Of a stretch of 64,000 nt of DNA, positions 4,503 through 60,102 are shown piece after piece. The position numbers and the translations under genes are program-made. The stretch's first letter is position 1, and every line of letters starts with the position of its first letter. The notes below the pieces were generated by a model that was not told where the DNA came from, ran no database searches, and saw only the letters and a program-made list of their open reading frames with translations. Source of the stretch: Rhizaria sp. SCN 62-66 (lineage: Eukaryota); contig MEDY01000008.1 in NCBI GenBank assembly GCA_001724265.1, positions 1 through 64,000 on the forward strand, in the 5' to 3' direction.

Positions 4503-7500
4503 ATGAGTAACACTCTCTCCCAGAGTGGCGAGCGCCGTTCATGGCTGTCGTACTCGGCCGGTGGTGCACCCAGCGTGCCTCCGATTGACCTTTCCCGCGT
4601 GCCAGACTACAACGGCTTATTAAAGGTGGCTCGGCCCGTCGCACATCAGCAGATCCAGCAGCGCCCTTTATAGCAACAACAACATTAGCCCGCTTCGTTC
4701 CTACAGCACCAGCAACATCAGCCTTCGAGTCAGCTGCAGCAGCCTCAACCCGCGCAGCCGCATTGCGAGTCGCCGTGGCAACAGCAGCTGTCGGCCAATC
4801 TTTCTCTGATGGGCCTTGCGCCGAACGCACAGCAGCAACGCCAACACCACCACCAACAGCAACATCAACAGCAACAGTTTGCACAGAATCAGCACGGCCC
4901 ACACCCTGCTCCTAGCGCCACCGTCGCTGTGTCCCAATTACAGCCTTCCCAGCCTGCGCCCTTACAGCGTGTGCTAGCGCAGCCGATGCCCTCACGGCCT
5001 GTTGCTGCCCCAGCACCGCCTGCGCCGCCTCAGCCGCAGTCGAAGTGGCACGCTCACTCGCTCGCCTTCGCACCGTCTACACTGCCCCAGCTGCCGATGC
5101 CTTCGGATCACGGCAACAACGGCATTGACAATGGATTTGCGGACGGTTATAACCACGGGTACACTGCTTTTGCAAGAAATAACAATAACAACAACAGCAA
5201 CAACTATCCTATCACTAGCGGTTATGGCGGTAACGGCGGCGGCCCCGTTGGCGGCAGCGGCAGTGCGCTGTGGGGCCGCAGTAACCGGCTTGGCGTTGAC
5301 GACGAGCTGGAGCTGGCGGGGCCGCCGTCGCCGCCGCCGGCGTCCGAGGCGCTGCCGCCGCGCAGCGGGATCTGGTCGAAGCTTAACATCCCCTCTGGGG
5401 CCGAGCTGCGTGCGCAGATGCAGCAGCAACAGCAGTATCAGCAGTACCCGCAGCAGCAACAGCATCAGCAGTTGCAACAGCATTAGCAGTTGGGCCGAGA
5501 GAGAGGCATGAATGCTCTAACCGAGTCCGCCGTCGCCTCAGCTCGCAACTGGCCCGCTGAGCCTGTTGTGAACAACAATTCTACGAGCAGCCCCAATCCC
5601 AATAACAACTACCACAGGCGGGGCTCGTTCGGCAGCCACACTAACGCCACGTACAGCAGCGGTGCACCCGTGCCCGCGCGTTCCTCCGCGACTGTGGGCA
5701 CCAACACGAGCGACAGCGCGCTGGCGGCCGGCATGTTCGCGGACCACCGTCGCGCCGCCGCCGCCGCGCTCGCCGCCATCCAGCCCGGCGCGCCCCTCGC
5801 GCGGCCGCTGCCGGGGCCCGCGCGCGCCGTGCTGCCCGACGAGGTTGAGAGCGCGGCGTCGCGGCGCCGGCAGCAGGAGATGCTGACGAACCTGCTCACG
5901 GTCATGGGCGCCGCAGAGCACCCCGCAGCAGCCGAGCTCGCGGCGCTGGCCGAGCGCAGCAACGCGGCCGCGGCCGAGGCGGAGGCCGCTGTGGTGACCG
6001 CACGCGAGGCCAACAACGCGCGCGAGGGATACGGTGCACGGAAAGAATTTGGCGGCCACAACAGCAACTTTGACAACAGTAGTGGCGGCTCGTACAATGT
6101 CCGGCTCGGACTGGCCCCGCACGGCCCCGGGGCCGGCGGCGCTGCTGGCGGTGGCGGGAGCGAGAGTGCGAGGCGTCGGCTGGAGCTGCTGGAGGTGCGC
6201 GAGATGGCTCCTCCGCCGTCGGTGCTGTTACACTCATCACAGGTACGATTATCATTGCAGTGTCACACATGGACGACAAATCAGTAATTATCGTTCCGCG
6301 CTGAATTTTGATGGTTTAGTCACATACTCATTACTATTATTTTATTGATAATGCTTTCTGTTTAGGGGAGTCTCCCGTTGTTGACTCATCCCAGCGCGCT
6401 TGAACCTCTCGATGCAGAACTGCGCCGTCGCGCTGAGCAAAAGGTACGCTCCAACTTCAACAAACGCTTTGATTTCCTGACGTGAATTATCATTTAACAT
6501 GACAATCTTCTTACCTGACATTGTGTGTCGATATCTAAACATGATTTCTTTCCATCTTGCTCCGTCACAGCTCGCCGTCGCTGCGGCGAAGGAGGAACTG
6601 GCGACGCTGTCCGACTCGCTCTCACGCCTCAGCGTTACCGCCGCGGCCATGCGCGTGGACGCAGCTGCGGGCGCCGAGACGCTTTCCGCCGCCGCGGCTG
6701 CCGCGCGCGAGGACGCCCGCCGGCGCGCGCTGGCGAAGCTGTACCTGCTTGCGGCCGAAGCGGAGCAGGAGCGTGGCCACGCGGGGCGGCTGGGCACGGT
6801 GCTGGCCGCGCTGGGCGACGCCGTGCAGGGCCGCGAGCTGGGCAACGCTGTGGACGACGCGCTGGAGCGCGCGCGGCGCGAGCGCGTGGCCGAGGCTGCG
6901 GCGGAGGCACAGGAGGTGTCGGTCGCGGTTAAGGCTGTGGAGGAGGCCAACAAGGCGCGGCGCGCGCTCGAGGCGCAGCAGCAGGAGCTTAAGCACGAGG
7001 AGCAGGTCAAAGACGGCAGGCTCGACGCTCTGCAGGGACAGCTGGAGGTGCTGCAGCAGCAGTTGCAGCAACAGCACGAGCTGCAGCAGCAGCAGCTGGA
7101 GCTGCGGGCCCAACAGTTGCAGCGAAGACAGCAGCAGCATTAGCAGCAGCAGCAGCAGCAGCAGCGTCAGTCGCCGGAGCAGCGCCCACAGACTCCCCCC
7201 GGTGCGCGCTCGCCGTTCCGTCGCGTCGCCGCGCAGTCACCCTACGCTGCCGCCGCCGCGGTCGCCGCCGCCGCAGCCTCCAAGACCGAGGCCGCGGCTG
7301 CCGCGCGCTCTCTCTCACAGGCGCAGTCCCCCGGCCGCCCCGGCACCGCAGACTCCGCTGCGCGCGGCGGCCCGGGCGCGGCGACGCGCGCGCAGTCGCC
7401 TGCCTTTCGCCCCGCGAGCAAGGGGCGCAACGCGGCCTGGGCGCCCGGTCCGCCCGCGCCGCTGCCCGGCGCCAGCGCGTCAACTGCGACGGGGGGCGTC

Positions 7501-8862
7501 GGCCGCAGCCGCACACGCATGGGCCCTGACGGCGCGCCTCTGACAGCGGCCGAGGCGCTGCGCGTGGCGTCGCCGTCGGCCTACGTCCGGGCCCGCCCTG
7601 CTACCGCTGGTGCAACCGCGAGCGCTGGCGCAACCGCGAGCGCTGTAGCCGGCGGTGCGGGCGCAGCGCAGAAGCGGCGCGGTGCCGCGGAGAGCGCCGA
7701 GCTCGACCTGATGCCGTGCTATCGCCACGCGCGGCGCAAGGCGCAGGAACAACGGCGAGAGGAGGTGCAGCGCGAGCTGCGACAGGAGCGCAACAAGCGC
7801 GCGTGGCTGCAGCAGCTTGAGCAACGCATGATCGCCAAGGCCGAGAAGAACGGCCACGCGTACGGCCACGACGACGCTGACGCTCACAGCCACGCCGCTC
7901 ACAGTCACAATTACAACCACGGCCGCGGCCACGGTCACGGGTCTGTTCAGGGCAAGACGCCGTACGGCGGTGACGAGTCAGTGTATGCGGCGTATCTGCA
8001 GCGCGCGCGGGCTGAGAATGACGCTTTACAAACGCAACAGCAACAGTACCAATTCCAACATCAACAGCAGCAGCCGCAGCCGCAGTGGCCCCAGTACGGC
8101 TCGCCCGCGCGTCCCTTGCTTCCCGGTCATGGCGTCCCCACTGCAAGTCATAGCGGACCTCCTAGCCGTGTTTCAGGACTCGGCGCGCTTGACGCCAGCT
8201 TTAGCATGCTCCAAAACAGCGTTGCTAATGGTACTGCGGTGGCTCAGGGCTCCGGTCCGGGCACCGGGCCTAGCAGTGCTGAGAAAGACGAGACGATGCG
8301 CATACTCCACAGCATGTTCATGCCCCGCTCTCCACTGCGCGACGCCTCTTGGGCCGCGGCGCCTGCACAGGCGATGCGCAATAACGGTGTAGCAATGAGC
8401 GCACCAGCGAACAACGCTGCCGATGACGAGGAGTACGCTGACGACTTTGACGGGTTCTCTGCCAACTCCATGAACGACACGAACAACAGAACTAACGCCA
8501 ACCCCGTGACAGCTGCCGCTGCGTCCCCTGGACCGCGCGCCCCCATTGCGCAGCACGCGTATGGCGCCCCTACAGTTGCCCCGCGCAGCGCGTCGCCGGC
8601 CGCATACGTCGGTTCCGGCAACGACAGCAGCGTGAGCATTTCCGTCGCATCCGACGCCGCGGGCGCCGGCGCGTCCCCGCTTCGCTTCGGCGTGCCAGCA
8701 GGCGGGAGCGCTGGCACGGGAGCGGGCTCACTGGCTGTTGCGTCGGCGGGCGCGTGGCACGGGCTCGACGATGCGGGCGTGTACCGTGACGGCGACTTAA
8801 TGGGCGTGGGCCCAGCGCCGAAGAACCCTTGGTACGGCGTCGGCGTTGTGCCTTCGGGATAA
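4503..8862 (+). CDS. Uncharacterised Gln/Ala-rich coiled-coil protein (~1369 aa); exons 4503-6242, 6366-6443, 6571-8862; in-frame TAG at 4671, 4686, 5484, 7141
   Basis: ORF-track pieces 4809, 5490, 6499 and 7519 join into one frame through TAG codons in Gln runs and two phase-0 GT-AG introns (6243-6365, 6444-6570). Ends in TAA. Confidence 0.75.
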
Positions 8863-9106: not shown

Positions 9107-11379
9107 TTACTTGCGGCTCATGTCGGCAAAAACGGAGAGGTCCTCGCCGTCGTCGACGCCGGGCCCGTGGCCGAAGTGGCCCCGGTACATGAGCTCGGCG
9201 TCAGCGCCGTCGAATCCGTCACCATCGCCGTTTTCGCCAAAGGCGGTGCTGCCAGAAAAGTCGCTCTGTCCGACGCCCGCGCCCAGCCCGGCCGCCGTGG
9301 CCGCCGCGGTCCGGCGCGCTGCGCCGTAGCTGCCGGCGCCCATTGCGCGCGCCAGGAGCGAGTCGCTGAAACCAACCTCGCCGCCTGCCGCGCCGCCCGC
9401 CGTCGCCGCGGCCGCGGCGGCCGCCGCGAGCTCGTTGGCGCGCATGGCCTTCATGGCGTCACACAGGTGCGTGAGCTTGACGAAGTCCTCGAAGGTCACG
9501 ACCTCGTGCGCGGGCTTGCCGCGGTCGCCCATGAGCACGGCGCATTCCTCGGCCGTGACGCTGAAGCCCACCTCGCGCAGCATCGCCGGCACCTCGCTCG
9601 GCGGCACGCCCTTGGGCGCGCGCAGGGCCGGCGCGGGCGCCAGTGCGTGCGGCCGCGCGGCCTCGGCGGCCCGCACGCGTGCCTGTTGGTCGAAGAAGGC
9701 GTAGATGCGCCGCAGGTCGTCGAGCCCGGCCGAGGAGAAGAGCTCGGCCAAGTCCACGAAGGGCATGTTGCGCGCCGCGCGCCGGCGGTCCTGGATCGCC
9801 GCGATCTCATTGGCCAGCACCACATCTGCGTCAGCCAGCGCCAGCGCGGGCATGGGCCGGAACAGCAGCCGAAAGGCTTGGCGGCGCTGCGAGGACGTAA
9901 GCGTCATGGCGCCCAGTTTGAGCGGCGCCGGCACGGCCGTGTTGGTCGTCAGCTCGGGCTGCGCGGCGACCTGGGCCAGGCGCAGGCGCTCGGCGAAGGG
10001 TACCACGACGCCCGCGGGCAGCTGCACCGCGTTGGCGGCCGCGGAGCCCGACAGCGGGCCCGGTGCAGACACGCCGCCCGCCGCGCCGCGCGCGCTGCCC
10101 CCGTTGCTGTTGGCGCCGCGGCCGCTGTTCTGGCCCTGCGTCCCGGCAGCCTCCGCGGTGACGGGGTTGACGGGCACGTTCATGCCCAGGTCGGCGTCTG
10201 CGCCGTCGTCGCCGGGGGAGAAGAAGTCCGCCGCGGCCATGGACACGCCGCACTTGGGCATATCGCTGACCCACTCGCCGTCGTAGACCTTTTCGCGCGC
10301 GCGGTAGTAGTAGATGCCCTGGCCCTCGCGCTTGCCGTTGAGCCACTCGCCCTCGTACACGTCCTGGTTCGCGCGCACAAGCGTGCCAAAACCGCACTGG
10401 AGGTTCTGGTGCCAATCGCCGGTGAAGACGGAGCCGTTAGCCATGTACAGCGTACCCTTGCCCTGGCGCTGGTTCTGGTGCCACACGCCCTCATAGCGCG
10501 AGCCGTCCGGGTAGTACTGCACGCCCATGCCGTCGCGCTTGCCCTCGCGCCAGTTGCCCGCGTACACCTTGCGCAGCGCCTGCGTTGCCGCCCCCGCGCC
10601 GCCGGGGCCGCCGCCGCGGCCGCCCGCGCCGGCCTTCTTGCCGCCGCCAGCAGTGCCGCCACCGGTCGCAGCCGCGGCCGCGGCGGCCGTTGCGCGCTCC
10701 GAGGCCAGGCGCTGTGCGGCGGCCGAGCCGGCGGCCGGAGCCGTCTTGTCCAGCGCCGCCGATGAAGAGGACGATGACGACGTGGCTGAGGAAAAGGAAG
10801 AGGCGGAAGGGTCCGACTTAACCCAGAGCGTGCCGTGTCCGTCGCGCATGCCGCGCTTCCACTCGCCCTCATAGGTGCCCGTGGCCCAGACCTGGACGCC
10901 AAAGCCGTGCTATTTGTTGTCCAGCCAGTCGCCCTTGTACGTCGTGCCCGTCTCCCACTTGGAGGCGCCGGCGCCCGAGGTCGAGGCGCCCGCGGAGGAA
11001 AGGGCGGACGAGTGACGCATGTCCTGGGGCGCCTTGGCCTTGACCCAGTACACAGTCTGGCAGGTGCCCGCCTTGGAGACCTGCTTGTCGCTCGCGCGCC
11101 AAGGTTTCGCAGCTGCATCAGCCTGACGTTGAGCAACGCGTTGCGGCAGAACTGGGGGGTTGCGGAAAGGCGGGGAGCGAGGGCGAGCAAGGGCGAGTAA
11201 GAGAGGAAGGGGACGTGGTCAGAAGATGAGCACCGAGATGAGTAGTGTACAAGTATGAAGTCATGGCGTGAGTATATAATGTAAACATGTCTGTTAAATA
11301 TGGTCGTACCTGCACGAAGACGGTTTAGCTCTTTGAGGGTCGCATAATGTTCCTCCTCAAGAGGAGTCTTGGAAGACAT
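9107..11379 (-). CDS. MORN3: MORN3-like MORN-repeat protein with C-terminal EF-hand-like region; exons 11379-11310 and 11151-9107; in-frame TAG at 10910-10912
   Basis: Tandem MORN repeats (YxGxWxxxxxxGxG) and a MORN3-like N-terminal segment KPWRASDKQVSKAG. Phase-1 intron 11309-11152 (GTACG...polypyrimidine CAG). Ends in TAA. Confidence 0.8.
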
Positions 11380-13766: not shown

Positions 13767-14398
13767 ATGGCTTCGCTTCCGCCGGATCAGCCGGGATCAC
13801 CCACACCGGCTTCCGCGGAAGTCGGCGCAGCAAGCGATGCCCCTGCTGCGTCGTCATCTTCTGTCCTGGCGACTGTCACCCGCCCGCTGGCCTCGACCGC
13901 TTCGACGCTAGCATCGCTCGCGCGCGCCGCCGTCGCGACCCCAGGGGCCGTCGCCCGCAGCGCGCGCTCACTCGTCCTGCTCACCCGCCCAGTTGTTCTA
14001 TTGCTTCTGGCCCTGCGTCGCCGCGGCGCCAAATCGGCCCACACAATGACGTCTGCCGATGCAAACATCTCCAGTGCTGCCAGGGTTCGCAAGCGTGACT
14101 TGATGCGCCTTTTCGCGCACCTGTCTTGGAACTACCCCCACGCGCTCGCGGCGCTTCTATCGCGTTCCAAGACTCTCCTGCTGTCGCCCGCAGCGGTAGC
14201 CGCCGCTGGTGCCGTCACTGACGCTGCTTCCACACCGGCTGCGTCAGCTGCGACTCCCGAGGCTGAGGCGGAGAGAGAGGCGGTGCTGCTGCTGGCACCC
14301 GCACTGGCCACGCTGTTCCGCTTTCTTTGGGAGGCGCGCCCCACAGCCGCGGGCCTGACCGCGCTTGCCGCACTCGCTCCCACCACACACAACAACAA

Positions 14399-14429
<31 letters not shown>

Positions 14430-17400
14430 GGGTGCGCGCTGGCGGAGCGGCTGCGGCGAGCGCAGTAGCACGGTTGGGGCGCGGGGCAAGAGCGGCTCGT
14501 CGCCATGCTCAACAGCATGCTTCCCCGTGCGCTGCGCCCCAGCCACGCCGTCAGCAGTATCGCTGCTGATGGTAGCTTGAGCGATATAAGCCCAGAGCCC
14601 GCGTCTCCGTCCGCTCCCGAGTCTGCGCCTGCTGAGTGGCTGCGCTCGCTGCTGTCGTAGTTCGCTTTGCCCCCTGAGCTGTGCACTGCCGCCGCCGCCG
14701 CCGCCGCACCACTGCTGGCGCCCCTCAGTCTCGGCGGCGGCAGTGGCGCAGTGTCAAACGCGGCTGCTGTGAGACTGCACGTCGAGACGGCGGCTCTCAG
14801 CGGCGACGTTGTCTACGCTTGCCAGAACGCTGACACCGCAGCCGACTGCGAGCTGGGCGACAGCGCATCGACTGACAGTGTACCGAGGGACCGTGGGCCG
14901 GCTGACTGTGGGCCCTGGTGCGATTGTGAGCACCGCCGCAGCGTCACCGTCCCGCTCACGGTCACGCTCGCGTTCTCCCGCGCACAGTCCGCTGCCGCCC
15001 CGGGCTCTGCTCCTAACGCCGACCACACCAACAGCACCACGTCGAGCAGCAGTGCGCCAGGCGGAAACGCCGCGAACGCTGTGCAGACCGTGTGGGTCCC
15101 GCTCGCGCTCTCTCTCACGCTGGCTCTGCGCCCGCCGCGCGCGCTGCCTCCTCTGCGGGCCGCCGCGGCCGACGCGAGCGTTGAGTTCGAGCTTGCGCTG
15201 ACCTCGGTTGGCCGCGTCACCACAACTGCGACCACCACTGCATCTGCGACCGCGACGGCGACCGCGGGCGGCGGCGCTGGGCGCGCCACCGCGGGCGACG
15301 CGGGCTCAGCGTGTGCTGGAGCTAATGGGGCGCCGGAGCCCAGCGTTGTCATGCCCTCCAGCTCACTGCCCACGGCTGCTTCATGTTACGGTGGCGGCAG
15401 TAACGAGACTTGCGCTGGCCTGGACGCCGCCGCCGCCGCCGCCGCCGCAGTAGACCAGGGCCGTGGGCGTGACCGCCGGCGTGACCGCACGCCCGGCGCA
15501 GTGCGCGCTGTCACGCAGTCGCGCTCACGATCACGCCCACGGTCACGCTCGCCGTCGCAGACGCGGCGACTGGCGTCTGCCGCGACCGCGACTGCGGTGG
15601 CGGCTGCGGCCTTGCCCGCGCTCGCGCCCTCGGTCACCGCAGGCTCCGGCTGGGGCTTCGGCGCCATTTTCGCCCCCGTGCGCTCATTCGCCTCGGCCGC
15701 GGCCGCGCTGGTCTCCGCGGTCGCCGTGCCGTCGTTCGACGCCGAATCTAAGCCGCCACCCGCAGAAGTCAAGCCTGGTTCGACGGCCCCGCGCAGCCGC
15801 AGCAATAGCCGCACGCGCACCCGCAGCCGCAGTTGCAGCCGCGCTGTCCCACGTGAGGGGTGCGGCACGGGCGTGTGGCTAGGCCCCGTTACGCTGCTGC
15901 GGTCTGTCGAGGCCACCGCGCTTGCGACGGCGTTCCTCAGTTATCCGCAGTCCGCTACCAACTGCCACAGCAATAATGCCAGCACTGCTGGCGGCAGCGC
16001 CACCGCGCCAGCGCCTACGCCTGCGCCGAGCGCGGCTGCTGTCCTACTCTTCGCCAGCGTCACGCCGCCGCTGAGCAACGGCGACGAGGCCAGAGCCGCC
16101 GACGCCGCGGCCGCAGCGGCCGCGAGAGCGCCCCACGGGCTGCTGGTGCTTCCCCCCGCGCTGCTGCCGCTGCCGCCGCGCACCGCGCTTGCCGTCGCGC
16201 CCGCGGTCGCGCTGCCCCCCGCGCTCGCGCTCGCCGTGGCCTCAGCGCGCTCGGCGTGCCCGCCTGCGGTCCGCGCCGCCGCCGCCGCGCACGCCGCCGC
16301 CGCCGCCATCGCCGCGCTCGGCCGCGTCCCCACGGCCGCCGCCGCGCTGCTGGCCGCGCTCTCGCAGCAGGCCGGCGCGGGGACGGAGACGGAGATGGGG
16401 ACGGAGTCCGGGATCGTGACCGTGCGCTACGCAGTGCCGGTCTGCTGCCGCCGCCGCCGCCACCGCGCCGCGCCCGCGCGCACGTCGCTGCAGCTGCCGC
16501 GCGCCTTCCTCGCCGCACACTTGCCCGGCGCCAGCGCCAGCGTTGACGCTGACAGCATTGCTGACGTTGTGTCGTCATCATCGCCGCCGCTACTGCCGCT
16601 GCCCGCGGCGTACGCGCACGCCGCGCCGTACGCACTGCACCGCGCGGCGACCGCGCTGTCGCTGCTCGACGCCGCCGCGGGCGCGCAGTGGGTCAAGTCG
16701 GCCAGCGCGCGCAACGACGCCGCGCGCGCGCGCGCCGCGAAGCAGCCCGGCGGCGCGGCATCGCTGCCCGCGGCCGGCGCGGCGGTCTGGGGCGCGCCTG
16801 CGCCGACGGACATCGTGCTTGCCAGCACTCGCACTCATACATGCGCAGACACGGCTGCGGCCGCTGACGCGCCGTTAGACGTTGTGCCAGGTCTACGCGC
16901 TGACAGCGTTGTGACGTCGTTCCGCCTCTTGCCAGAAGGCTGCGACGCCGCCACTGGCCCAGGCGCTGGAGCGACTGCCAGCAGCGGCAGCTCCGCGGTG
17001 CCGGCTGCCGGCTGGGTGCCCCCGCACGGCGGCGACTGCGAGCAGGGCGGGCCCGCGACCGTGGCGCTGGGCTGGGGCGCGTGGCGTCGGCCTTGCGGCA
17101 ACAGCGACACCGGGGCCCGCGGCGGCGGCGCTGAGCGCGCGGAACAGCAGTGGCGCGAGCGGGTCGGCGTTTGTGCCACTGGCGCTGCCGTAGTCCCAAC
17201 CTCAGCCGAGTCCGCCGATTTTGCTACTGACGCCACGGCGGATGCGGAGGACACGACTGAGGAGGTCGAGGTCTGGGTCCTGCGTGGCGGCCTGACTTTA
17301 AGTTGTGACGGGCAGACTGTACGTATATCCCTGGCACAACATTCTTGGGAGTGCGGGAGTCAGAGTTCGACTCTGGCATGGTTTGCTAACAACGCTTTCA

Positions 17401-49932: not shown

Positions 49933-52900
49933 TCATGCTGGCATTGTGTCATCATACGGGGAAGGCTGCCCGTCAAGGTCCAGCTCGCCGGCCACCATCC
50001 TGGTCACGGGGTACACAAGTCCACCAACAGACACCTTCTCCTTACGCCACCCACTCAGCTCCACGGCAGCCGCACGCGCACGCTCATGCGCCTCCACCCG
50101 CCGCTGCTGCTCGCCCCATAGCCGCGCACGTTCGCTGCCAGGCTGCCAACGCACGCGACCTGACACAGCGGCGGCCCCGTCGTCCTCGTCCGACAACACT
50201 GACGCCATCTTGGTGCGCCGCGGCGACCCGCCCTTGACGGCGGCCGCGGCATGTGCCTCCGCCTTGCGCTCCGCGGCGGACCTGCGCTGGCGGTCGATGT
50301 CGGCCCGCTGCGCCTGGTGCAGCAGCTGCATTGCACGCGCCGCGTCCGCGCCCGCCTCGGTCTCGGCCACAGCCCCGCCCGCAGGCGCACCGGCGACCGC
50401 CGCGGCCGCCGCAGCCGCGGCCACAGCGGCGGGCGGAGCGCGGGCGAACACCTCGGACGTCGTGCCGACCGTGCTGTAGGGCCCCGCGGCCAGAGCAGCG
50501 GCGCCCTGAACGGGGCCGCGGTCGACGATGCCCGCGGCAGCAGTGCCCACTGACACTGCGCGTGCACGGGGGCGTCGCGCCGCGTCCGCCGCGGCCACAG
50601 AGTAGAAGCCGGGGCCCGGCGTGTCGGGCAGAGCGGGGGCGAGAGTGCCTGCGAGCGTGGCCGTCGTGAGCAGGGGTCGGTTGAGCCCGTCGCCAGTCGT
50701 CACAGTGACGCCCATCGAGTAGTGCAAATTGCTGCTGGGGCCGAACGCGCCGTCACTGCCGCCCGCGCCACCGCCCAGTCCGCCGCCGCCGCGCTCTCCG
50801 GCGCCACGCGCGTGCGCCGACGGCCGCGACACGCAGTTGCCAGACTCGCCGGCGCGCGGGATCACCCCGCCCAGCCCGCGGCCCGCCGCTGCGGCCGCCG
50901 TGGCGCTGGCGTGCGCGCCCACGCCCGCGCTGTCGCGGCCGTAGGGGTCGTAGCTGCCAGGCCCGAGCTGCGCGGCTGAGAGCTCGTCGCGGCGCGAGCG
51001 CGGCATCGACGTCGTCGCCATCGCGGCCGAGTCGGCCCACGCGCGCGAGCCGCGGCCCGCCGTGGGGCCCGACGCCGCCATGTCCACGAGACACACAGAA
51101 CGCACCGGCGGCGCTGGTGCAAGCGAGAAGGCCTCGGGCGCGAACACGGTCGCCAGGGACGGCAACGTCGGCGCGTACGAGCCCGGTCCGCGCGCGGTGT
51201 CGACCTGCCGCTGCACCACGTGCGCCATCGTCATCACGCCGGCCGACACGCCGGGCCCGCCGCTGGAGCGCAGCGAGTGGTGCGTGGCCGAGCTCGCGGT
51301 GAGGCTACCGGCGCCGCCCATTGCCACGCGCGCGCCCGCCGTGACCGAGGCCGGCGTGGGGAGAACGCCGAGCATCGTGAAGCGCGACCGGGCGCGCGCG
51401 CGGGTCAGCGCCGACGACTGCCAACCCACCATCGCCGCAGTTGCGGTCGCCTGCACCTGCGCCTGCGCCTGAGCCTGGGACTGCGTCTGGCTCTGCGACG
51501 ATGCGAGCGCGCCACTGAGCAGCGCGCTGGACGATGACAGCGAGGCTGACGCAGTGGCCGCGCGGGGCACGCCGGAGCTGTTGTCTGCGCCTGCGCCTGC
51601 GCCGGTGCGCCGAGGACTCGCGCTGCCGGCGCGTGCGCGGGAACGGGAACGGGAGCGTGAACGTGAGCGTGGCCTGCTGTCGGCGGGCGAGCTTGCATCC
51701 GCAGCGGTCGAGGCGCTGCTGGGATCGTGCGATGCCGTTGGTTGGCTCACCTGCGGCGGCAACACCTGCGGCATCGACATTGGAGGCGGCAGTGGACACG
51801 CAAAAGCAATGCCCGTGCCGGTGCGTGGGCGCTGCCACCGCAGCACGCCGAGCGGGCGCGTGCCGCTGGATCCCGAGTACGCGGCAATCCCGTGCATCTG
51901 CTGCTGCGGCCGCTCCTGCTGCTGCAGCTGCTGCTGCGCGGCCGACGTCGCCATGCCGCGGCCCAGCGCGGCAAACGACTGCGATGTTACGTCGCCCGCG
52001 CGCTCGAGGAAGTGGTCGTGCGCGCCCGCCATGGCCGCGAAACGCTCTGCAACGGGAAACGACACGCCGGGCCGCGACGACGCCGCGGCGGCCACGGCGC
52101 TCACCGACACGCCCGCGTCAGCGCCGCCTGCAGACGGGGATGACAGCGGCAGCGTCGACCGCAGCGGCAGCCTCCCTTGCAGCACAACGCCCGCGTGCGC
52201 GCCGCCGCCTTCGCTGCTGCCGTGCTGCGCGTGCGCCTGCGCGTGCGCCTGCGGCTGCGCGAGCCCCGCCATGCCGCTCTCGGCGGAGGCTGCGACGGCG
52301 GCGCGCGCGCGCTCGCGCTCTGCCCTCTGCGCGACGCCCGCGCTGCTGCCGGCGATCTGCGCGTAATGCTACGCGGCCAGCGTCAGCTGCAGCTTCGCGC
52401 CCAGCGCCGAGAAGGCCACAGCGCGTGCGCGTGCCAGCGCCGGCGCGGCGGCACGGCACAGCGCGGCGTCAGCGCGCGCGAACCCCAGCCCGCCGCCGTC
52501 GTCCAGGTCCATGCCCGCGCCGGCGCCGGCGCCGTTGGTGGCCGCGGGGAAGAGCGCCGACGACGCCGATGACACAGCAGCGGACGCGGCCAGCGCGGCC
52601 ATCGCGGGGGTCCGATCCGCGAGCCCCTCGGCGGCCGCGGCGGAGCCGTGCGGCGCGTGCTCGTGCGTGTGCGAGCGGTTGCGCCGGCGGCAGTGGCCGC
52701 AGCGGTCGACCTGCGCCGCGCCGCCCGCGCCCTCAGTACCAGTCTCGGCCCGCGCCTCGGCCTCGATAGCAGCCGCGGTGGCCGCCGCGCTCAGGGGCGG
52801 CTGCGGCGCCGGCGCCACGCAGCCGTCCGCGGCCGCGACAATGCCCTCGCGCTGGCGCCGCAGCTGCCGGCGCACGCGGCGGCGCTCGGCGCGGTCGCGT

Positions 52901-53436
52901 GATGCCTGCTCGTCGTCGGCGGCTTCGGCGGCGGCCGCGGCTGCGGCGACCGCGGCGGCTGCTGCAGCGCTCGCGGCCGCGGCGTCGGAGCTGGGATCGG
53001 CGGCGGCAGCTGCTGCGGCCGCGGCGGCCTCATTCTCCGCGTCGATGCGGTCGCGGCGGCGGCGGTGGCGACGGCGGCGCGCGGCGGCAGCTTCTTTCTC
53101 TTCCTTGGCGATTGCGGCAGCAGTTGTGGCCGACATCAGCACGCCCATTGCGGACTGCTGGCGCTGCTGCAGCGCGCGCTGCTGCTCCTGATGGTGGACC
53201 TGCGTCGAAGTAACAAGTGCGGCCGCAGCGGCGGCGTCAGCCTCGGCCACGGCACGCTGCAGCAGCACTGCGTTGTTGGGGAAACCGGAAAGAAACCGGT
53301 TCGTGGCAATGGCTGCGCGACGGGCACCCTCTTCTTCCTCGGAGAAGATGGCCGGGGGCGGCGGAGGTGGTGCCCGGCCGCGTGGTAAGTATGACACCGA
53401 GCGCCAGTCGACGCTCGGCGTTTTAAGGCCCAACAT
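49933..53436 (-). CDS. Ala-rich protein with PGP (STPG/SHIPPO-like) repeats (~1167 aa); in-frame TAG at 52369-52371
   Basis: ORFs 52369-53436 and 49933-52272 share a frame across one TAG. Motifs GPGSYAP, GPGSYDP and TPGPGFY. Ends in TGA. Confidence 0.65.
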
Positions 53437-53919
53437 GAGCGGTCAGTGACGTGTTGAGCGCCTCGGCGACAGTAGGTGGGTTGTCAGTCCTTTGCGACTG
53501 ATTTAGAAGTTGGTTATCGAGGCCTATACACAAGTTGAGACGATATAATTACGGATTTACATGAGATATAATTGGGAAAATTGGGGAAAACTACTTGCAC
53601 TGCTAGTTTACGATAATGTTAGTTGGATTTCACAGAAACGGATGGATATGGCGCTTCGTCGAGAAGTTTCGATGCTGAGTTTGGACCGCGGGTTGTTCAA
53701 ACTAGTCCGACTTTAAGTCGCTGAGTCAACATGGTCTTTCCGTTACAGTTTTTGCTGTTGTAGTATGTTTTTTAAGAACTAATATCTCACATTATATTTC
53801 AATTCAACTTTCTATGAAGCTTAGTGGCGTGTATATCGAGCACTGATTCTACAGACTCCCACCAATCACCAACTTCGACGAACACTCCTGCTATTGACAC
53901 CGCGCCCAGCGCGTCTCTG

Positions 53920-56900
53920 ATGTCCAGTCTTCCCGGCGCTGGCGGGGGCGACACCCCCATTGGGCATATTGTTGGTCCGCCGACGGCACCGCGCTCTCCG
54001 CCCTTGTACGTCCGTACAACGGACACCGACTCTGCCTCCACTCCCGCCGTCGCCGCTGTCACCTCCACTGCCCCTGCATCTGGACAGGCCCCGTCCTCTT
54101 TCATTCTCCCGGACCCCGGCGTGCTCTCCGCGCGCGTTGCGGCCTCGCTTGAAGGCAACCCGTTTGCGGTGTCCGGCCTCGTATTTCCCGGCTCGCGCCT
54201 CGGCTCCGCCTCCGCGGCCGGCCTCCCCGCAACCGGCCTCTCTGCGACAACCGCGACAGCGACTGGCGCTATGCATGGTACGGTGCGCTTCCCCCTCGGC
54301 GCGGCCCCCTTGCGGCAGAAGCAATTTGCGTTCGACGCCGCCGCCGACGCCGCCGCGCTGAGCGGCAGCGGGGCCAGCTTCGACGCCGCCACAGCAGCCT
54401 CAGCCGCCGCTCATGCCTCGCCAGTGTCATCTTCAGCAGCAGCGCTACAGCAACCCCCCGCGGCCGCCGGCGCCCCGCCCGTGCGCGTGGTGGTGCGGAC
54501 CGCTGACCGCGCGTCCTCGGCCGTTGCACGCGCTAAGGCAAAGGCGCTGCTGCACAAGCTCGAGAGCGCGCACGCTGCCTCGCGCGCGCCAGCCAAAGGC
54601 AACGGCATCGGCACTACAGGCGCTGACTCGCGCGCAAGCGGTCGTGGTGACGCCACTGACGCTGCTGGCGGCGGTATGGAGGCGCTCGCTATCGGCCCCA
54701 GCGCGACGCCTACAGCCACGGTCTCCGCAGCGGCCGCGGGGAGCGCTCTCGCGACGCAGGCCTTTCCGTCGCGGCCTCTGCGCGCGCACGCACACGCACA
54801 GGCGCATGCTGCTGCGGGCGGAGACGCCGGTGCGCCGGGCTCCAGCGGCACGAGCGCGACTGCTGTGCGGCGCCGCGCCCTCGCCGCCCACGCATCCCCC
54901 GCGCCCAACAGCAGCGTAATGAAGAGCTTGGGCATCAACGCGCGCGGCTCCGGCCTTCGCGCGCAGTCGGGCCACTCACTGTCGGCTACGCACCTGCTGC
55001 CGCCCTCGCCGCCCGCGCAGCCGCAGTCGCCAGTGAGCGTCAACGGGCGCCTCAGCGGCGGGTGGAGCGGCCGCCGCGACTCCTCGGCCCGGCCCCCGTC
55101 CCCAGGCACCATTAACGACGACTGGGACGGCGACGGCAGCGGTGGCGGCGATGGCGGCAAGGCGGCGAGCGCGGCGACGCCTGTGGCGTACCGCCGCCGC
55201 GGTCGCCGGCCCTCGGCCACTGCCGACCCCGCCGCCGCCGCCGCTGCCGCCGCTGCTGGCGCTGGCGCTGACGGCGGCGGCGGCGGCGGCGGCGTGCTGG
55301 CGGCGTCGCACAGCGCGACGTCGCTGGCGGACCTGCTGCGGGCCGCCGCCACGCCACTGCGCGCGCCGCTGGCCAGCACTAACATTAGCACCACCGTTCC
55401 CGCCTCCGCCGCTGCGGCCGCGGCGGCGAATCCGCTCGCGCGCGCCGGACCCGGCGGGGCGACTGTGGGCGCGTCGCGGGTGTACTTACAGAAGCGGCAG
55501 GAGCTCATGCGGGAGCGTGCGCGCGCGCTTGGGCTAAGTTTCGACGGCGACGACGACGATGACGACGACGGGGGCGACAGTGAGGGCAAGCACGGCGGCG
55601 GCAGCGGCGGCGGCAGCGGCGGCGGCAACGGCGGCGTGCTGGTTCGCGTCAAAACGCGCTCCGCCGTTGCCGCAGCGGCTGCGCGCGCCAACGCCGCCCC
55701 CCTGCACACCGCCGCGCCGACAGCGGCGACTGCGGGTGCGGGCGGACGCCCGCCAGTTTCCGGCGGCAGCGCGGCCGCGAGCGGCGCCGCTGCGGGGAGC
55801 GTGCGCCGGATCGCCACTGCGCGCCAACAGGTGCCACAGCGTCGCGATGATGGGGACTCGAGCGCCGACCCCGGGCTCGCCATCGTGGGCTCCGGCCCCT
55901 CTGGCGGCCACAACAGCAACAGCAACAGCGCCGCCGGCACTCGCGACGACCGCGGGCGCGGGTATCCTGCGTACCAGAGCCGTGGCCACGCTGGCAGCAC
56001 GGGCCGCGGCCGCGGCGACGACGGCGAGGACGAGCTGCCCCACGGCGGCGACGACCACGGCGGGAGCGGCGCGTTCGGCCCCTGCGGCGGCGGCGAGAGC
56101 AAAGACGAGATGCGCCGGTTCGCGGAGTCGCTGCTGTTTGGCGACCTCCCGCTCGGCAGCAGTCCCGCGCCCGCGCCCGCGCCTGTGCGCCCCAGGCCCG
56201 GCGCCGCTGTCGCCGCTACCGAGAGCAATAACCGCGTGATTCAGCGCCACACGTTCGACTACGACGACGACGACGACGGCGGCGAGCGCGCGTACTTCCC
56301 GTCGCCCCGCTCTCCCGGCAAGACTGCGCAAAGCCCACAACAACATCAACAGCACAGTCAGTACGGGCAGCTGCACCGCCAGGCGTCGCAGCGTAGCGCC
56401 GCTGGCCGTGGCAGTATCAGTGGCAGTGGCAGCGGCAGTGGCGGCGCCGGCATCGCGCCTGTGACCGCGACGATCACGTCGGGCTTCACCGGCCGCGTCA
56501 CCACTGCGCGCCGCCACGCCGCTCCTGCAGCGACGTCCAACAGTGCCAACGCTTCCCACTCTGGCAACGCTGCTCCTGGCGCTGGCACTGGCGCCGGAGC
56601 AGGCTTCGACGCCGCGGGCTCAGCGCTGGGCCTCTCCGGACTCATGCGTGTCGCGTCAGCGTCTGCGCGCCCCAACCGCGCTGGCACTGGCGCCGGCGCC
56701 GGCACTGCTGCTGCCGCCGGTGGTGCTTCTGTGGGCGGCAACACTGGTACCCCTGGGCGCGTTGGCGCTGGGTGGGCGCCGAGCGACGCGTTTGCCGCCT
56801 TGTCGCGCAAAGTGCGCGCGTCTGCTGCGATGCAGGCGACCGGCGAGGCGTCCGGCGCTGCGAGCGGCGCCGCGGGCATTGCTGGCGCGGATGAGAGCGC

Positions 56901-59900
56901 TGCCGAACGCATGGCGCGCAACGAAGCGAGGTTGCGGGCGCTGGCCCAGATGCCTGCGCGCAACACGACTGGCCGTTCCACCGGTCATCAAGCGCACCCT
57001 GACAATGGCGATGTTTCCAGCCCGAAGAACGTTGAGTCTGGCCAGGATAGCGCCAGCGGTGACGGTGCGCAGGGTGTCCTCGAGCATGAGCGCAACGACA
57101 TGCTTGAACACAGTCTCGACGGCGGCCTGGGCCTTGACCCCGAGTCCGAGCATGATGAGCAGCCTGTGCATGCCAATGACAAACAAGATATTGTTGCGTC
57201 TGCGATGGAACTCGAGGCTGCTTCCACTGCTGATGTCGCGATCAACACACGCACTCAGCCCGGGTCTGATGGCCGTCAACAGAGTGGCTCTGCTCAGGAC
57301 GATGATCGCGAGCTCGATATGTCAGCTCTCGCGTCTGAGCTCAACTTCACAGTGCACAACGCGACCGCGACACAGCTTTCGCCCATGCACGAGCAAAGCG
57401 ATGATAGCAACGATCACAAGAACAACAGCAATATTACTAACAAGAGCAACACGAGCATGAACCTTGTTTATCCTAAGAACGATGACGCTGTCGATGATGG
57501 TACCGACATGGCCACACCGAAGCCAAATCTTACCCCGGCTCCGCGGCCTGAGCCTTCGCCGACCGCAGCTGCCCGTCGCTACCACGGTGACCGCGACGAC
57601 GGTGGGGATGACGGCGACGACCGCGCCGAGCTGTCGTTTTCCGAGAGCCCGCTTGCGCACTCCGCTTTGCCGAATGCGCACACCCAGGCGAAGAAGTCCA
57701 CCCCGGCGTCTCCCGCGTCCGCTTCTACCGCAGCAGCTGCTCGCCGTGGTGGCGGCCACGCGACCCCTGCGCCTGCGACAGCATCCGGCGAACCGCGCCC
57801 CGCCGGCCGCTCGCGCACCCCTGCGACTCGCGTCCCTCGCGCTGATCCCACTGCGACCGCAGCCGCGCTAAACGAAGGCTCGCACTCGCCGTCCCGCGCT
57901 GCCGGCCTCGCGCGCCCCGCCTCCTGGACTCGCACTCCGGCACCTGCAGCTGATGGCGCTCCCGCATCCACCTCAGCGGCTGCTGCCGCTACCGCCGCTG
58001 CTGCTGCTGCTGCGGCAGCGGCGGCCCTGGCTGCGACCGGCAACGGCCGTGAACAGCGCCGGTCCGCCGCCGCGGCGCTGGTGGCGCGCTTGCGCCGCGA
58101 CCAGAACCAGCAGCTGCACCAGCAGGAGCAAGCTGCGGCCGCCGAAACCGCGGCCGCGGCGGAGGCCCAGGCCAAAGCCAAGGCGGAGGCTGCGGAGGCC
58201 GTCGTGGACCTGAGCCCCGCGTCGCTGCTCTCGTCGAAGTACCTTCCCCAAGACCCCCCGACCGCGCCGCCGACGACGGCAACGCCGCATCAGCAGGCCA
58301 AGGGCCAGACCAGGCCGCGCACCGACACCCGCGCCCCGCCCGCGTCTGCAGGAGCAACTGCCCCCCAGCAGCTGCAGCGCCGTGGCCCGCGCAGACCGTC
58401 CATCAACCCCGCATCCGCCCACGCACAGCACAACACGAGCGCTGTCAACACCACAGCGAACGCTGCCGACGACAAGCCCGAGCGAGAGTAGCCACAAGAG
58501 CGTCCAGAGGATGAGGACGACCCCGAGGTTCTCGCCGCCGCGCTGCACGTGGCGGCCCTGCACCGGCAGCGCTCGCTGCTGCTGTTCCATGGCTGGCGCC
58601 CGTGGCAGCGCCTGATCGAGGCCCGCCGCGCCTCGGCCGCGCGCGCTGTGGCCCACGCCGCCGCGGTGACCCTCCCGCGCCGCCGCGCCGCCGCCTTTGC
58701 GCAGTGGCGCGCCGCGGCCGCGCAGTCTGCGGCCGAGGGGCGCGAGTTTGACTCCGCGGCCGCCGCGCTGGCCTCGGCCGCCGCCGCCCGCGGCGCGCTG
58801 CAGCGCGGCGTTGCGGCGCTCAAGGCACATCTGACTGAGATGAAGGCGGCGCGCGCTAAGGCTGACGCGTTGTGGGCGCGGAACACCAAGGGCCGCGTAC
58901 TGGGCGAGTGGTGGCTCGCGGCGCGCGCGCGCGGCGAGGCCGTGGTCGCCAAGATCGAGAGCGTGCGGCCGCGCGCGGAGGCCATGGCCAAGGCGGGCGC
59001 GGCCAGGCGGGCGTGGGCGCGACTCAAGGCGGGCGTTGCGGCGGCCAAGGCCGAGCGCGCGCGCGAGCAGGAGCGCGAGCGGATGCGGCAGCGGGCCGCG
59101 GAGGTGCTGCGCGAACTCAACGGCGCCGGCGACGGTGACGGCGCTGCTGCTGGCAAGGCGAGCAGCAACAGCAGCGTCGGCGCGCTGTGGGCGAGGGCGC
59201 GTGCGAGCGCGGGGGACTATCTTAGCACGGCCGCTCTTGATGCTGACGAAGACAGCACTGCCGGACGCATTGTGTTCACGCTCGACTCAGCGCTCACCGC
59301 TGCCGGTAGCGCGAGTGCCGGGGGTCACGGACAGCACGTGACTGCGACGGCGGCAGCGGCTGAGGCTGCCGCGGCTGATGGCATGGCTAGCCGGATTGCC
59401 GCGCTGGCAGAGGCCGCCGACCGCGAGTTCGACGCCATCGCGGCGCAAGTGATGGGAAAGCCCGCGGCATAGTCTCGCTTGAACGCTAATGTCAGCGGTA
59501 ACCCAGCGACAGCGTCCAAGAGCAGTGGTGCGACCTCGGCGACCAAGGATGACGGCAATGGAGCACGCAAAACGAAACCTGCTGCGACCGCTGGCAGGCG
59601 TGCTGTTGGCGGGGCTGCGACAACAAAACCCACCGCGGCTGAAGAGCAGCAGCAGCAGGAGCAGGCGCGTGCACACTTGAAGATGTCGCGCGGTCGCAAC
59701 GCCGCTGGGGCATCCAACTCGACTTCAACACGCGACTCAGCAGCGCTTTCGTCAGCATTTGCCACTGCTGATCTTGGACTCGCGCTTTCACAGCCTTTCG
59801 ACCTCTCAGGAGGTGTTGGCGGTGCGGCTCGAGACGCCCATGGAGCCGCTACAGAGGAGGTGGATGACGAAGGCGCAACGCGGGCTATGCAATCCGACAT

Positions 59901-60102
59901 CCGCGTCGCCAACGTCGGGCCCGCAAGCGAGTTTTACCTGATCGCCCCGCCACAGCCGCACGCTGCTGATTATCACTCATCTCAATTTGTTGGCGTGAGA
60001 GAGGACGCGAACGAGAGCGCGTACGGTGCGCCTTCTGGGTGGAGTGCCGCAGCTGAGGATGACATGCGCGCACCCGGCGGAAGGCAATTATACCGGCGTT
60101 AA
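53920..60102 (+). CDS. Large low-complexity protein (~2060 aa) with an Sfi1/CCDC191-like Trp-periodic helical segment; in-frame TAG at 58489 and 59470
   Basis: ORFs 53824, 58549 and 59479 share a frame and are separated only by TAG. Segment with LLLFHGWRPWQRL, AFAQWR, VLGEWW and RRAWARL. Ends in TAA. Start uncertain. Confidence 0.7.

Follow-up and report, generated by a model that had tools for sequence, protein, structure and literature searches.

The DNA analyzed here, a stretch of 64,000 nt that we call the window, carries genes of 65-75% GC separated by intergenic DNA of ~45% GC. Its gene content includes the eukaryotic nuclear genes SNW/SKIP, Mre11, ATG27, and a C2 plus inositol-polyphosphate 5-phosphatase gene, and the closest homologs of window genes are all eukaryotic. 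The Mre11-like gene is interrupted between its two domains by one AT-rich GT-AG intron of ~120 nt (~24161-24281), which served as the model of a genuine intron here; this intron and the eukaryote-specific nuclear genes place the window in a eukaryotic nuclear genome. The window stems from the nucleus of an uncultured microbial eukaryote that is GC-rich and poor in introns, and the GC content of its genes together with its AT-rich GT-AG introns bears out an earlier description of the source as a GC-rich, intron-bearing protist.

In-frame TAG codons and their frame statistics

TAG occurs inside the coding sequence of six genes in the window, while TAA and TGA never do (Table 1). The earlier note on this DNA had reported 15 in-frame TAGs in six genes, and both counts stand: a TAG stands at every one of these positions, in frame with a long ORF, and of the seven stop-to-stop frames into which neighboring same-frame ORFs fuse when TAG is read as sense, the first two read as one gene (gene A) with two putative phase-0 introns. 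The further claim that no TAA or TGA lies within these genes is true but partly circular, because the frames are delimited by TAA and TGA.

Table 1. Genes, in-frame TAG codons, and reading frames in the window.
Feature	Coordinates	Strand	Details
Gene A, Q-rich low-complexity protein	4503..8862	+	TAGs 4671, 4686, 5484, 7141
Gene A, putative exons	4503-6242, 6366-6443, 6571-8862	+	
Gene A, putative phase-0 GT-AG introns	6243-6365, 6444-6570	+	GTACG...YAG boundaries, phase-0 continuity
MORN-repeat protein gene, from first ATG	9107..11020	-	TAG 10910-10912; Pfam MORN
~2,100-aa Ala/Ser-rich protein gene	13767..20063	+	TAGs 14466, 14658
Mre11-like gene, no TAG	20289..26956	-	Metallophos and Mre11_DNA_bind domains; ends TGA
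SNW/SKIP spliceosome-factor gene, no TAG	34358..35935	-	Pfam SKIP_SNW E 6.5e-50; ends TGA
C2 + inositol-polyphosphate 5-phosphatase gene, no TAG	36331..38676	+	Pfam; ends TAA
~1,565-aa protein gene	43898..48592	+	TAGs 45107 (polyQ run), 45149, 45299, 47660, 47750
~1,167-aa low-complexity protein gene	49933..53436	-	TAG 52369-52371
~2,060-aa low-complexity protein gene	53920..60102	+	TAGs 58489, 59470
In-frame TAGs (13)	4671, 4686, 5484, 7141, 14466, 14658, 45107, 45149, 45299, 47660, 47750, 58489, 59470	+	Sequence read
In-frame TAGs (2)	10910-10912, 52369-52371	-	Sequence read
Stop-to-stop frames with TAG as sense	4473-6287, 6481-8862, 13671-20063, 43880-48592, 53818-60102	+	
Stop-to-stop frames with TAG as sense	9107-11218, 49933-53442	-	

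Comparison with the other reading frames gives a non-circular count. The 9,063 codons of the TAG-bearing frames hold 15 TAG, 0 TAA, and 0 TGA in frame 0, against 181 TAG, 151 TAA, and 567 TGA in the five other frames, or ~180 stops per frame, of which TAG makes up 20%. If the sequence past the TAGs were noncoding, the chance that 15 of 15 stops would be TAG is by our own arithmetic ~0.2^15. The same holds over 15,669 codons, with 15 TAG, 0 TAA, and 0 TGA in frame 0 and hundreds of TAA and TGA in the other frames. Of the three stops, TAG read as sense is alone in fusing the top coding ORFs, which grow from 1800 to 2130, 1557 to 2094, 786 to 1570, and 811 to 1169; as a control, reading TAA or TGA as sense barely lengthens them (1800 to 1805 or 1800; 1557 to 1557 or 1571). 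Shadow frames in DNA of 65-75% GC stay open for hundreds of codons.

TAG is used sparingly. Among presumed glutamine codons there are 15 TAG versus 464 CAG and 115 CAA, so that TAG accounts for ~2.5%. Most of the TAGs sit in low-complexity sequence, and the conserved TAG-free enzymes are avoided. The proteins of the TAG-bearing genes are mostly low-complexity, and the Pfam scan, which covered gene A and the genes at 9107-11020, 43898-48592, and 49933-53436, left most of them without a match, those of gene A and of the gene at 43898-48592 included.

Coding sequence and independent contigs across the TAGs

We scored the 150-nt flanks on either side of each TAG with a codon model whose training set was the TAG-free genes. 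The TAG frame was the top scorer in 27 of 30 flanks, and in both flanks for 12 of the 15 TAGs; the three flanks in which it was not best are all CAG/CAA-repeat flanks. Both flanks score best in the TAG frame in the MORN-repeat gene and at both TAGs of the gene at 13767-20063. Past the last TAG of each gene, a further 209 to ~1,800 codons are open and keep the coding signal, and no TAG junction shows a frameshift or an AT-rich spacer.

A domain and a homolog also extend across TAGs. The whole MORN-repeat protein matches Pfam MORN at E 2.2e-34, and one repeat match crosses TAG 10910: it covers profile positions 1-22 of 23 and residues 10-31 of a 46-aa segment in which the TAG is residue 19. A homolog of 1,481 aa (P0201) is collinear with the gene at 43898-48592 on either side of TAGs 47660 and 47750, the aligned segments being residues 501-598, 710-834, 989-1199, and 1386-1496. 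Two further database entries, P0199 and P0200, are this gene itself, split exactly at these 2 TAGs.

Contigs from other sequencing runs were compared over 8 of the 15 TAGs (45107-59470). In run X3, a DNA data set from another study and year, the contigs listed match the window across 6 of these 8, and no run has a variant at any of the 8. X3 contigs at 45271-48302, within the gene at 43898-48592, and at 51335-52431, over TAG 52369, are identical to the window; contigs at 57630-58750 and 58727-59834 span TAGs 58489 and 59470 with no variant listed. None of the contigs listed reaches over the repeat that holds TAGs 45107 and 45149. The identity of independent contigs rules against assembly error as the source of the in-frame TAGs.

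These results bear on whether the TAGs are translated at all, or are instead chance ORF junctions, nonsense mutations in pseudogenes, or errors of assembly or sequencing. Such an origin could draw on the open shadow frames of GC-rich DNA and on the low-complexity, mostly Pfam-less character of the proteins. Against it stand the 15 TAGs with 0 TAA or TGA in frame 0, where the other frames hold 4 times more TAA and TGA than TAG, the coding signal that runs on in the same frame, the MORN repeat and the P0201 homolog that span TAGs, the identical independent contigs, and the lack of frameshifts or AT-rich spacers at the junctions when intergenic DNA is ~45% GC. We regard this explanation as largely refuted and very improbable.

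Removal or change of the TAGs before translation, be it through the splicing of in-frame introns that end in TAG or through U-to-C editing of the RNA, appears very improbable. The introns of this organism do have TAG or CAG at their 3' ends, and RNA evidence over the TAGs is almost absent, a single RNA-library contig lying over one. Genuine introns, however, are 120-127 nt long, AT-rich, and GT-AG, contain pyrimidine tracts, and hold stops in every frame, whereas the sequence just upstream of the TAGs is GC-rich and coding, in the same frame, and often made of CAG repeats. Among the joints listed none is a credible TAG-skipping one, all having sides of at most 24 nt between low-complexity stretches. 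That single RNA-library contig, from polyA library X6 (52142-52386), retains TAG 52369; it extends 15 nt beyond the TAG, and DNA carry-over is possible.

Terminators and the probable amino acid for UAG

Since the ends of TAG-bearing genes are set by TAA or TGA by construction, the non-circular sample of terminators consists of the 8 TAG-free genes, of which 3 end in TAA, 5 in TGA, and 0 in TAG; a sample of this size leaves room for dual use of TAG. TAA ends 8 of the 12 long genes overall. The terminal TAAs of the MORN-repeat gene and of the genes at 43898 and 29035 overlap GTAAGC, a motif identical to the 5' splice site of the Mre11-like gene, and because of this overlap some of these 3' ends may be mis-set.

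Stop codons of dual meaning occur in Condylostoma, karyorelicts, and Blastocrithidia (UAA). UAG could likewise be sense within genes and stop near mRNA 3' ends, or be inefficiently suppressed, without full reassignment. The terminator sample of 8, the 15 TAGs in 15,669 codons, and their avoidance of the conserved enzymes are compatible with such use. We nevertheless judge it quite unlikely: one gene holds five TAGs and another four, so that partial read-through would make the full-length product vanishingly rare, 0 of 8 TAG-free genes end in TAG, and beyond the last TAG of each gene long stretches stay open with coding signal. Frame statistics, flank scores, the MORN repeat, P0201, the X3 contigs, and the introns all support the core claim made earlier, that UAG is sense while UAA and UGA remain stops.

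Which amino acid UAG encodes is read from context alone, because in none of the alignments, that with P0201 included, does a residue of a homolog fall exactly opposite a TAG. The context points to glutamine. It was claimed before that many TAGs lie in or beside CAG/CAA codons, and 6 of the 15 do abut a Gln codon; for 8 of 15 a Gln codon is at most two codons away, where the figure for Q is 227 of 561 and that for L 152 of 1,106. TAGs 7141 and 45107 lie within CAG/CAA runs, TAGs 4671, 5484, and 47660 beside such runs, and TAG 4686 pairs with CAG in an adjacent imperfect repeat (Q-Q-H-[TAG]-P-A-S versus Q-Q-H-Q-P-S-S). A classifier of neighbor context at the TAGs gives Q +39.4 bits, H +14.5, L +6.2, and the rest at most +0.7. 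The earlier reading of UAG as probably Gln thus gains polyQ context, an internal repeat, and the classifier, though not aligned homolog columns, and on the sequence context we consider Gln the probable assignment.

A sense codon for another residue is an unlikely alternative. Its candidates include leucine, which UAG encodes in exLh, a rhizarian, and in the phyllopharyngean MAGs from TARA, and also Glu, Lys, Tyr, and Trp. No aligned homolog column fixes the residue, leucine has the third-best neighbor context, and the gene tree described below groups the window with a rhizarian, the lineage of the known UAG=Leu case (PMC5304391). Trial residues at the MORN site are nondiscriminating (R 49.0 bits, K 47.6, L 47.3, Q 46.5, E 45.7, Y 45.2, S 45.0, W 43.6), with L and K slightly above Q. 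Against a residue other than Gln, neighbor context favors Q by ~25 bits over the runner-up and ~33 bits over L, TAGs are embedded in uninterrupted CAG/CAA runs or paired with CAG in the internal repeat, and CAG to TAG is a single transition. The low-complexity sites of most TAGs would tolerate almost any residue.

Taken together, it is likely that UAG is a sense codon in this organism, most probably for glutamine, with UAA and UGA as terminators, the pattern of NCBI table 15. The window contains no tRNA genes by ARAGORN and no Rfam matches. The cases of Iotanema spirale and Tetrahymena (PMC5304391) suggest by analogy that a tRNA-Gln anticodon may have changed from CUG to CUA, reading UAG but not UAA, and that eRF1 recognition of UAG may have been lost or weakened. 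Once UAG was freed in this way, C-to-T transitions in CAG would be synonymous, which would explain why TAGs are found mainly in polyQ and weakly constrained, disordered stretches at ~2.5% of presumed Gln codons.

Host lineage and relation to known UAG codes

The organism recurs in wastewater and bioreactor metagenomes across a decade. No named protein, from EukProt or elsewhere, exceeds ~35-39% identity to two conserved window genes, which indicates that the window is not from a sequenced close relative. An SNW/SKIP relative at 76% identity (P0080) shares one 26,409-bp contig with P0005. A single gene tree, built from relatives of the C2 plus 5-phosphatase protein, grouped the window in a clade where Lapot gusevi, a rhizarian, is the one named member and gave no support for placing it with metamonads; this one tree hints at an affinity with Rhizaria. 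In ciliates, macronuclear genomes are rich in AT and their introns are tiny, whereas the window has genes of 65-75% GC, proteins of up to ~2,100 aa, and ~120-nt introns, which makes it unlikely to come from a ciliate. Searches with the conserved genes showed no ciliate matches.

UAR=Gln codes, the pattern of NCBI table 6, are used by many ciliates, hexamitin diplomonads, Streblomastix, ulvophytes, and Amoeboaphelidium. The window differs from them in having no in-frame TAA (0 in 15,669 codons) and in using TAA to terminate genes. In such codes a stop is captured via a single-step tRNA-Gln anticodon mutant (PMC5304391, PMC11687900). Nuclear codes that give UAG and UAA separate meanings are rare, and the same two papers name at least four lineages with UAG=Gln and two with UAG=Leu. 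A close parallel to the window among non-ciliate protists is Iotanema spirale (Fornicata, Metamonada), whose eRF1 carries T32G in the GTS motif and in which UAG is Gln and UAA the primary stop (for the code, PMC5304391 and PMC9161772). A standard-code relative is apparent for both, Euthynema for I. spirale and, for the window, a relative with 45% identity in a conserved enzyme (locus L001) whose genes are terminated by TAG; unlike I. spirale, the window has no supported metamonad placement.

The earlier note named Iotanema and some ciliates as UAG-only Gln lineages, correctly but incompletely, since it did not name the ciliates Protocruzia tuzeti, Hartmannula sinica, and Trochilia petrani, which read UAG as Gln and hold firmly to UAA as their preferred stop (PMC11687900). 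With these three more carriers the variant is less exceptional than that note implied. The window shares with them a UAA stop and, probably, UAG=Gln; it differs in its GC-rich genes, its intron length, and the size of its proteins. UAG alone is also reassigned, with UAA retained, in exLh (Sainouroidea; PMC5304391) and the TARA MAGs (PMC11687900), to leucine in both, whereas TAG context in the window points to Gln. Code-15 phages (crAss-like, Lak) show the same codon change, TAG=Gln (PMC9523058). A phage origin of the window was rejected because of its spliceosomal introns and the nuclear genes SNW/SKIP, Mre11, and ATG27.

The UAG=Gln variant is therefore already known, and the window looks like a new non-ciliate carrier of it. 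From the sequence, an independent origin of the reassignment is plausible. We lean toward the view that UAG was captured for Gln independently, and recently in evolutionary terms, in an unsampled non-ciliate, non-fornicate protist lineage, possibly rhizarian; that the change was recent is suggested because TAG makes up so small a share of Gln codons, mostly at weakly constrained sites, and because the 45%-identity relative still ends its genes in TAG.

Every additional case of separate origin is a test of how UAG and UAA come to be told apart by eRF1 and a tRNA with a CUA anticodon. A GC-rich, non-ciliate carrier in engineered wastewater would extend the variant to a wider span of lineages and base compositions and would offer material for enrichment, metaproteomics, and the study of eRF1. 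Standard gene callers cut the genes of this organism at TAG, and a public database has the gene at 43898-48592 in two parts, 776 and 254 aa long. Unless the code is recognized, such metagenomes will yield misannotated eukaryotic bins. If a recent, independent capture is borne out, the organism would offer a natural snapshot of early stop-codon reassignment, from an accessible habitat open to enrichment and culture.

In-frame TAG codons and the frames they join

The earlier note placed 15 in-frame TAG codons in six genes, and all 15 coordinates do carry TAG, each in phase with a long ORF. When TAG is read as sense instead of by the standard code, neighbouring same-frame ORFs join into seven frames. 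The first two of these are best read, from their sequence, as a single gene that would be connected through two putative introns and a micro-exon; the six genes are thereby recovered, and the start given for the first of them, 4503, is its first ATG.

Frames joined by reading TAG as sense, and putative features linking the first two
Feature	Positions	Strand	Length	In-frame TAGs	Boundaries	Phase
Frame	4473-6287	+	604 aa	3
Intron, putative	6243-6365	+			GTACG...TTTAG	0
Micro-exon, putative	6366-6443	+	78 nt
Intron, putative	6444-6570	+			GTACG...CACAG	0
Frame	6481-8862	+	793 aa	1
Frame	9107-11218	-	703 aa	1
Frame	13671-20063	+	2,130 aa	2
Frame	43880-48592	+	1,570 aa	5
Frame	49933-53442	-	1,169 aa	1
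Frame	53818-60102	+	2,094 aa	2

Two more in-frame TAGs occur on the minus strand (3907-4020 and 34050-34127), just 5' of the PAP2 ORF and the ORF at 31614-34049, where the sequence may be coding or 5' UTR.

Because GC-rich DNA keeps shadow frames open over long stretches, chance was tested explicitly. In their own reading frame (frame 0), the seven joined frames contain 15 TAG and no TAA or TGA in 9,063 codons. The five alternative frames of this DNA carry 181 TAG, 151 TAA, and 567 TGA, or about 180 stops per frame, one fifth of them TAG, so that if the sequence downstream of the TAGs were untranslated, TAA and TGA together would be expected about four times as frequently as TAG. Treating TAA or TGA as sense leaves the top coding ORFs nearly constant (1800 becomes 1805 or 1800, respectively; 1557 becomes 1557 or 1571; 1316 becomes 1317 or 1327), while treating TAG as sense, the least common stop triplet in the window, takes 1800 to 2130, 1557 to 2094, 786 to 1570, and 811 to 1169.

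We also scored the 150 nt on either side of each TAG with a coding-potential codon model trained on TAG-free genes only. The TAG frame scored highest in 27 of 30 flanks, and in both flanks at 12 of the 15 TAGs. The three misses, the flanks downstream of 4671 and of 4686 and the one upstream of 45149, all consist of CAG/CAA repeats, in which frame is inherently ambiguous. Genes in the window are 65-75% GC and the 16.9 kb outside long ORFs about 45%, and none of the TAGs sits in intergenic spacer of the latter kind.

Independent contigs, introns, and homology across the TAG sites

One alternative is that the TAGs are assembly errors. The window derives from a metagenome of a bioreactor or of wastewater, on a contig reported at 161,484 bp, and nearly identical sequence turns up in runs dated 2015 to 2025 from several studies; the small-share runs X5 and X8-X11 are excluded as habitat evidence. 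Four runs were compared with the window over 43800-60200, an interval with 8 of the 15 TAGs in three genes; 0.88-0.99 of its sampled words occur in bioreactor and wastewater runs that two studies produced between 2015 and 2017, and 0.58 in a 2025 run. Contigs from X3, a DNA run of another study and year, are identical to the window over 45271-48302, 51335-52431, and 57630-58750, and a further X3 contig at 58727-59834 has one difference, off the TAG. Together the listed X3 contigs span six of these eight TAGs and keep TAG at all six, which answers the concern about assembly error at those sites; the other two, 45107 and 45149, sit in a skipped repeat outside every listed contig. No alternative letter at a TAG appeared in the four runs over this interval. 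X4 and X6, both from 2025, differ from the window at a few single bases and by two 3-nt indels (52876 and 57237), none at a TAG, and these differences suggest strain variants.

Removal of the TAGs from transcripts by splicing or editing is a second alternative. One contig from X6, a polyA RNA-library, matches 52142-52386 with no differences and retains the TAG at 52369-52371; this is weak evidence, since the contig extends 15 nt past the TAG, short of the 31-nt bridging rule, and may reflect DNA carry-over. RNA-library contigs overlap parts of the three genes in 43800-60200, although contigs cannot show expression, and gene parts outside their cover carry no information. Among the 15 joints listed (473 others exist), none was credible, with all sides at most 24 nt and lying between low-complexity stretches. 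What an intron looks like in this genome can be seen in the Mre11-like gene, where a bona fide intron at about 24161-24281 on the minus strand (GTAAGC...TTTTAG, about 120 nt) lies between the Metallophos and DNA-binding domains and is AT-rich, with a pyrimidine tract and stops in every frame. Sequence upstream of the TAG sites is unlike this intron, being GC-rich and coding, often with CAG repeats. The Mre11 protein itself is extended at its N terminus by about 495 aa of low-complexity sequence and contains long inserts rich in Ala.

Protein similarity also continues across TAGs. The product of 9107-11218 is a MORN-repeat protein (Pfam MORN, E 2.2e-34), in which the match covers residues 10-31 of a 46-aa segment and profile positions 1-22 of 23, with the TAG at residue 19, and it survives an X at that residue. 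For the gene with five TAGs (43898-48592, plus strand), residues 400-1570 were searched against 1.84 billion representatives. Three proteins were returned: the window's own two pieces, of 776 and 254 aa, cut at TAGs by public gene callers, and a homolog of 1,481 aa, P0201. BLASTP and alignment show P0201 to be collinear with query residues 501-598, 710-834, 989-1199, and 1386-1496. Since it aligns both before and after TAG 47660 (codon 1261) and TAG 47750 (codon 1291), the pieces belong to one gene. A word-index search with this gene gave a single match, the window's own piece, and no further homolog.

The probable residue at UAG and the remaining stops

Neither the P0201 alignment, which leaves residues 474, 1261, and 1291 uncovered, nor BLASTP, the word-index search, or tblastn against 80 metagenome loci provided a homolog residue aligned at a TAG. 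The MORN match scores 49.0 bits with R at the TAG, 47.6 with K, 47.3 with L, 46.5 with Q, 45.7 with E, 45.2 with Y, 45.0 with S, and 43.6 with W. Substituting any of these or X for the TAG shifts the score by no more than 5.4 bits, R, K, and L ranking just above Q; this profile position is variable, and the score leaves the residue undiscriminated.

Local context is more specific. TAG 7141 breaks a run of CAG, four CAGs precede TAG 45107, and CAA or CAG adjoins TAGs 4671, 5484, and 47660. TAG 4686 stands in the context Q-Q-H-[TAG]-P-A-S, and 33 nt downstream an imperfect copy, Q-Q-H-Q-P-S-S, has CAG at the equivalent site. A Gln codon occurs within two codons of 8 of the 15 TAGs, compared with 227 of 561 codons for Q, 152 of 1,106 for L, 82 of 645 for E, and 43 of 337 for K. 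A neighbour classifier using offsets -3 to +3 and trained on the window's own genes gave +39.4 bits for Q, +14.5 for H, +6.2 for L, and at most +0.7 for the rest. TAG is one transition from CAG, the main Gln codon (464 CAG, 115 CAA). Context, internal repeat, and classifier point indirectly to Gln as the probable residue.

A count of how all genes end would be circular for those bearing TAGs, since an ORF built with TAG as sense is unable to end in TAG, and we rejected it as a statistic. Only the eight TAG-free genes are informative. Three end in TAA (the C2 and inositol-polyphosphate 5-phosphatase gene, 29035-31437, and 31614-34049), five in TGA (SNW, Mre11, 60669-62600, PAP2, and ATG27), and none in TAG. 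This is suggestive of a non-terminating UAG, eight genes being too small a sample to dismiss dual use. The 12 long genes end in TAA (eight) or TGA (four), and the base after TAA is G in five of the eight TAA ends. TAAs at 6285 and 24278 were rejected as terminators, both being intronic. Three terminal TAAs, at 9107-9109 (minus strand), 48590-48592 (plus), and 31435-31437 (plus), overlap GTAAGC, the donor hexamer of the Mre11 intron. These overlaps may represent unrecognised 3'-terminal introns or a favoured stop context, and certain genes may have to be redrawn at their 3' ends. At 38674-38700 on the plus strand, the phosphatase TAA is followed by a short TAAGT-like repeat and, six codons on, by a second in-frame TAA, a possible tandem stop.

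Affinities of the organism and possible origin of the code

The organism is a nucleated eukaryote. Its nuclear genes include the spliceosome factor SNW/SKIP, Mre11, an ATG27/M6P-receptor-like gene, PAP2, and the C2 and inositol 5-phosphatase, and it has GT-AG introns. The encoded proteins are long, with Ala, Ser, and Gln abundant. ORFs tried in the long spacers (e.g., 38.7-43.9 kb and 26.9-29.0 kb) gave no Pfam matches, and the 64-kb window contains no tRNA genes and no Rfam matches.

The closest relative shares 71% identity in the phosphatase and 76% in SNW. Its proteins P0005 and P0080 (the SNW/SKIP relative) lie on the same 26,409-bp contig, which indicates that local synteny is maintained; this contig is absent among the 80 loci listed from the metagenome scan. 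Searching those loci by tblastn with 15 window proteins, the phosphatase excluded, gave no match, so synteny with them is limited to the phosphatase. A more distant relative's locus, L001 (1-22112 of a 311-kb metagenome contig, 53% GC), has 45% identity in the phosphatase and no homologs of other window genes. Three of its long ORFs end in TAG, and Pfam domains (Glyco_transf_61 and WD40) are present in two of them; continuing past these TAGs gains only a few dozen codons. With domain-bearing genes ending in TAG, this locus appears from its sequence to use the standard code. Its genes are compact and seemingly intron-poor, and one ORF of 2,474 aa lacks a Pfam match.

The best named matches are distant, at about 31-39% identity, and belong to widely different taxa (Lapot gusevi, Dermamoeba, Nonionella, land plants, Crustomastix, Physarum, Rhizamoeba, and choanoflagellates). 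In a phosphatase tree of 34 of the 73 matches (omitting P0025, P0027, P0036-P0040, and P0042, along with every match below P0045), the window falls inside a 14-row clade with SH-aLRT 99, in which the rhizarian Lapot gusevi alone is named. As a quick search with one gene and no bootstrap, this tree is a hint only, and in an SNW tree of 28 of the 312 matches the window's clade sits on a long branch without placement. A protein-atlas look-up yielded no taxonomy that could be used. We see a weak hint of rhizarian affinity. Close kinship with Iotanema or other EukProt species is not supported, and a ciliate origin is unlikely, judging from the genome style of ciliates.

As far as a single 64-kb window permits, the analysis upholds the earlier interpretation of UAG as sense, probably Gln, and of UAA and UGA as the stops that remain. 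We hold it very likely that UAG is a sense codon; the fuller assignment, UAG as Gln with UAA and UGA terminating, is a likely one. The change could have arisen when a duplicated tRNA-Gln(CUG) mutated to a CUA anticodon, which would read UAG but not UAA, and eRF1 would have lost affinity for UAG, as with T32G in I. spirale, both by analogy with passages in PMC5304391. The N-domain features of eRF1 listed in PMC5304391 are the motifs GTS, (TAS)NIKS, and YxCxxxF, together with E55 and S70. CAG-to-TAG transitions could later have drifted as synonymous changes. TAG makes up about 2.5% of Gln codons and is concentrated in weakly constrained sequence, which would fit a fairly recent capture of UAG.

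According to passages in PMC11687900, PMC5304391, and PMC9161772, UAG alone is read as Gln in Iotanema spirale, Protocruzia tuzeti, Hartmannula sinica, and Trochilia petrani, and as Leu in the rhizarian exLh and three TARA ciliate MAGs. Searches of the main text of open-access and bioRxiv papers turned up no account of a reassigned UAG in a wastewater eukaryote that is GC-rich and not a ciliate. With UAG-only Gln already described, the code variant is a known one and the novelty lies in who carries it: the window probably represents a further, previously unsampled carrier lineage of UAG-only Gln.
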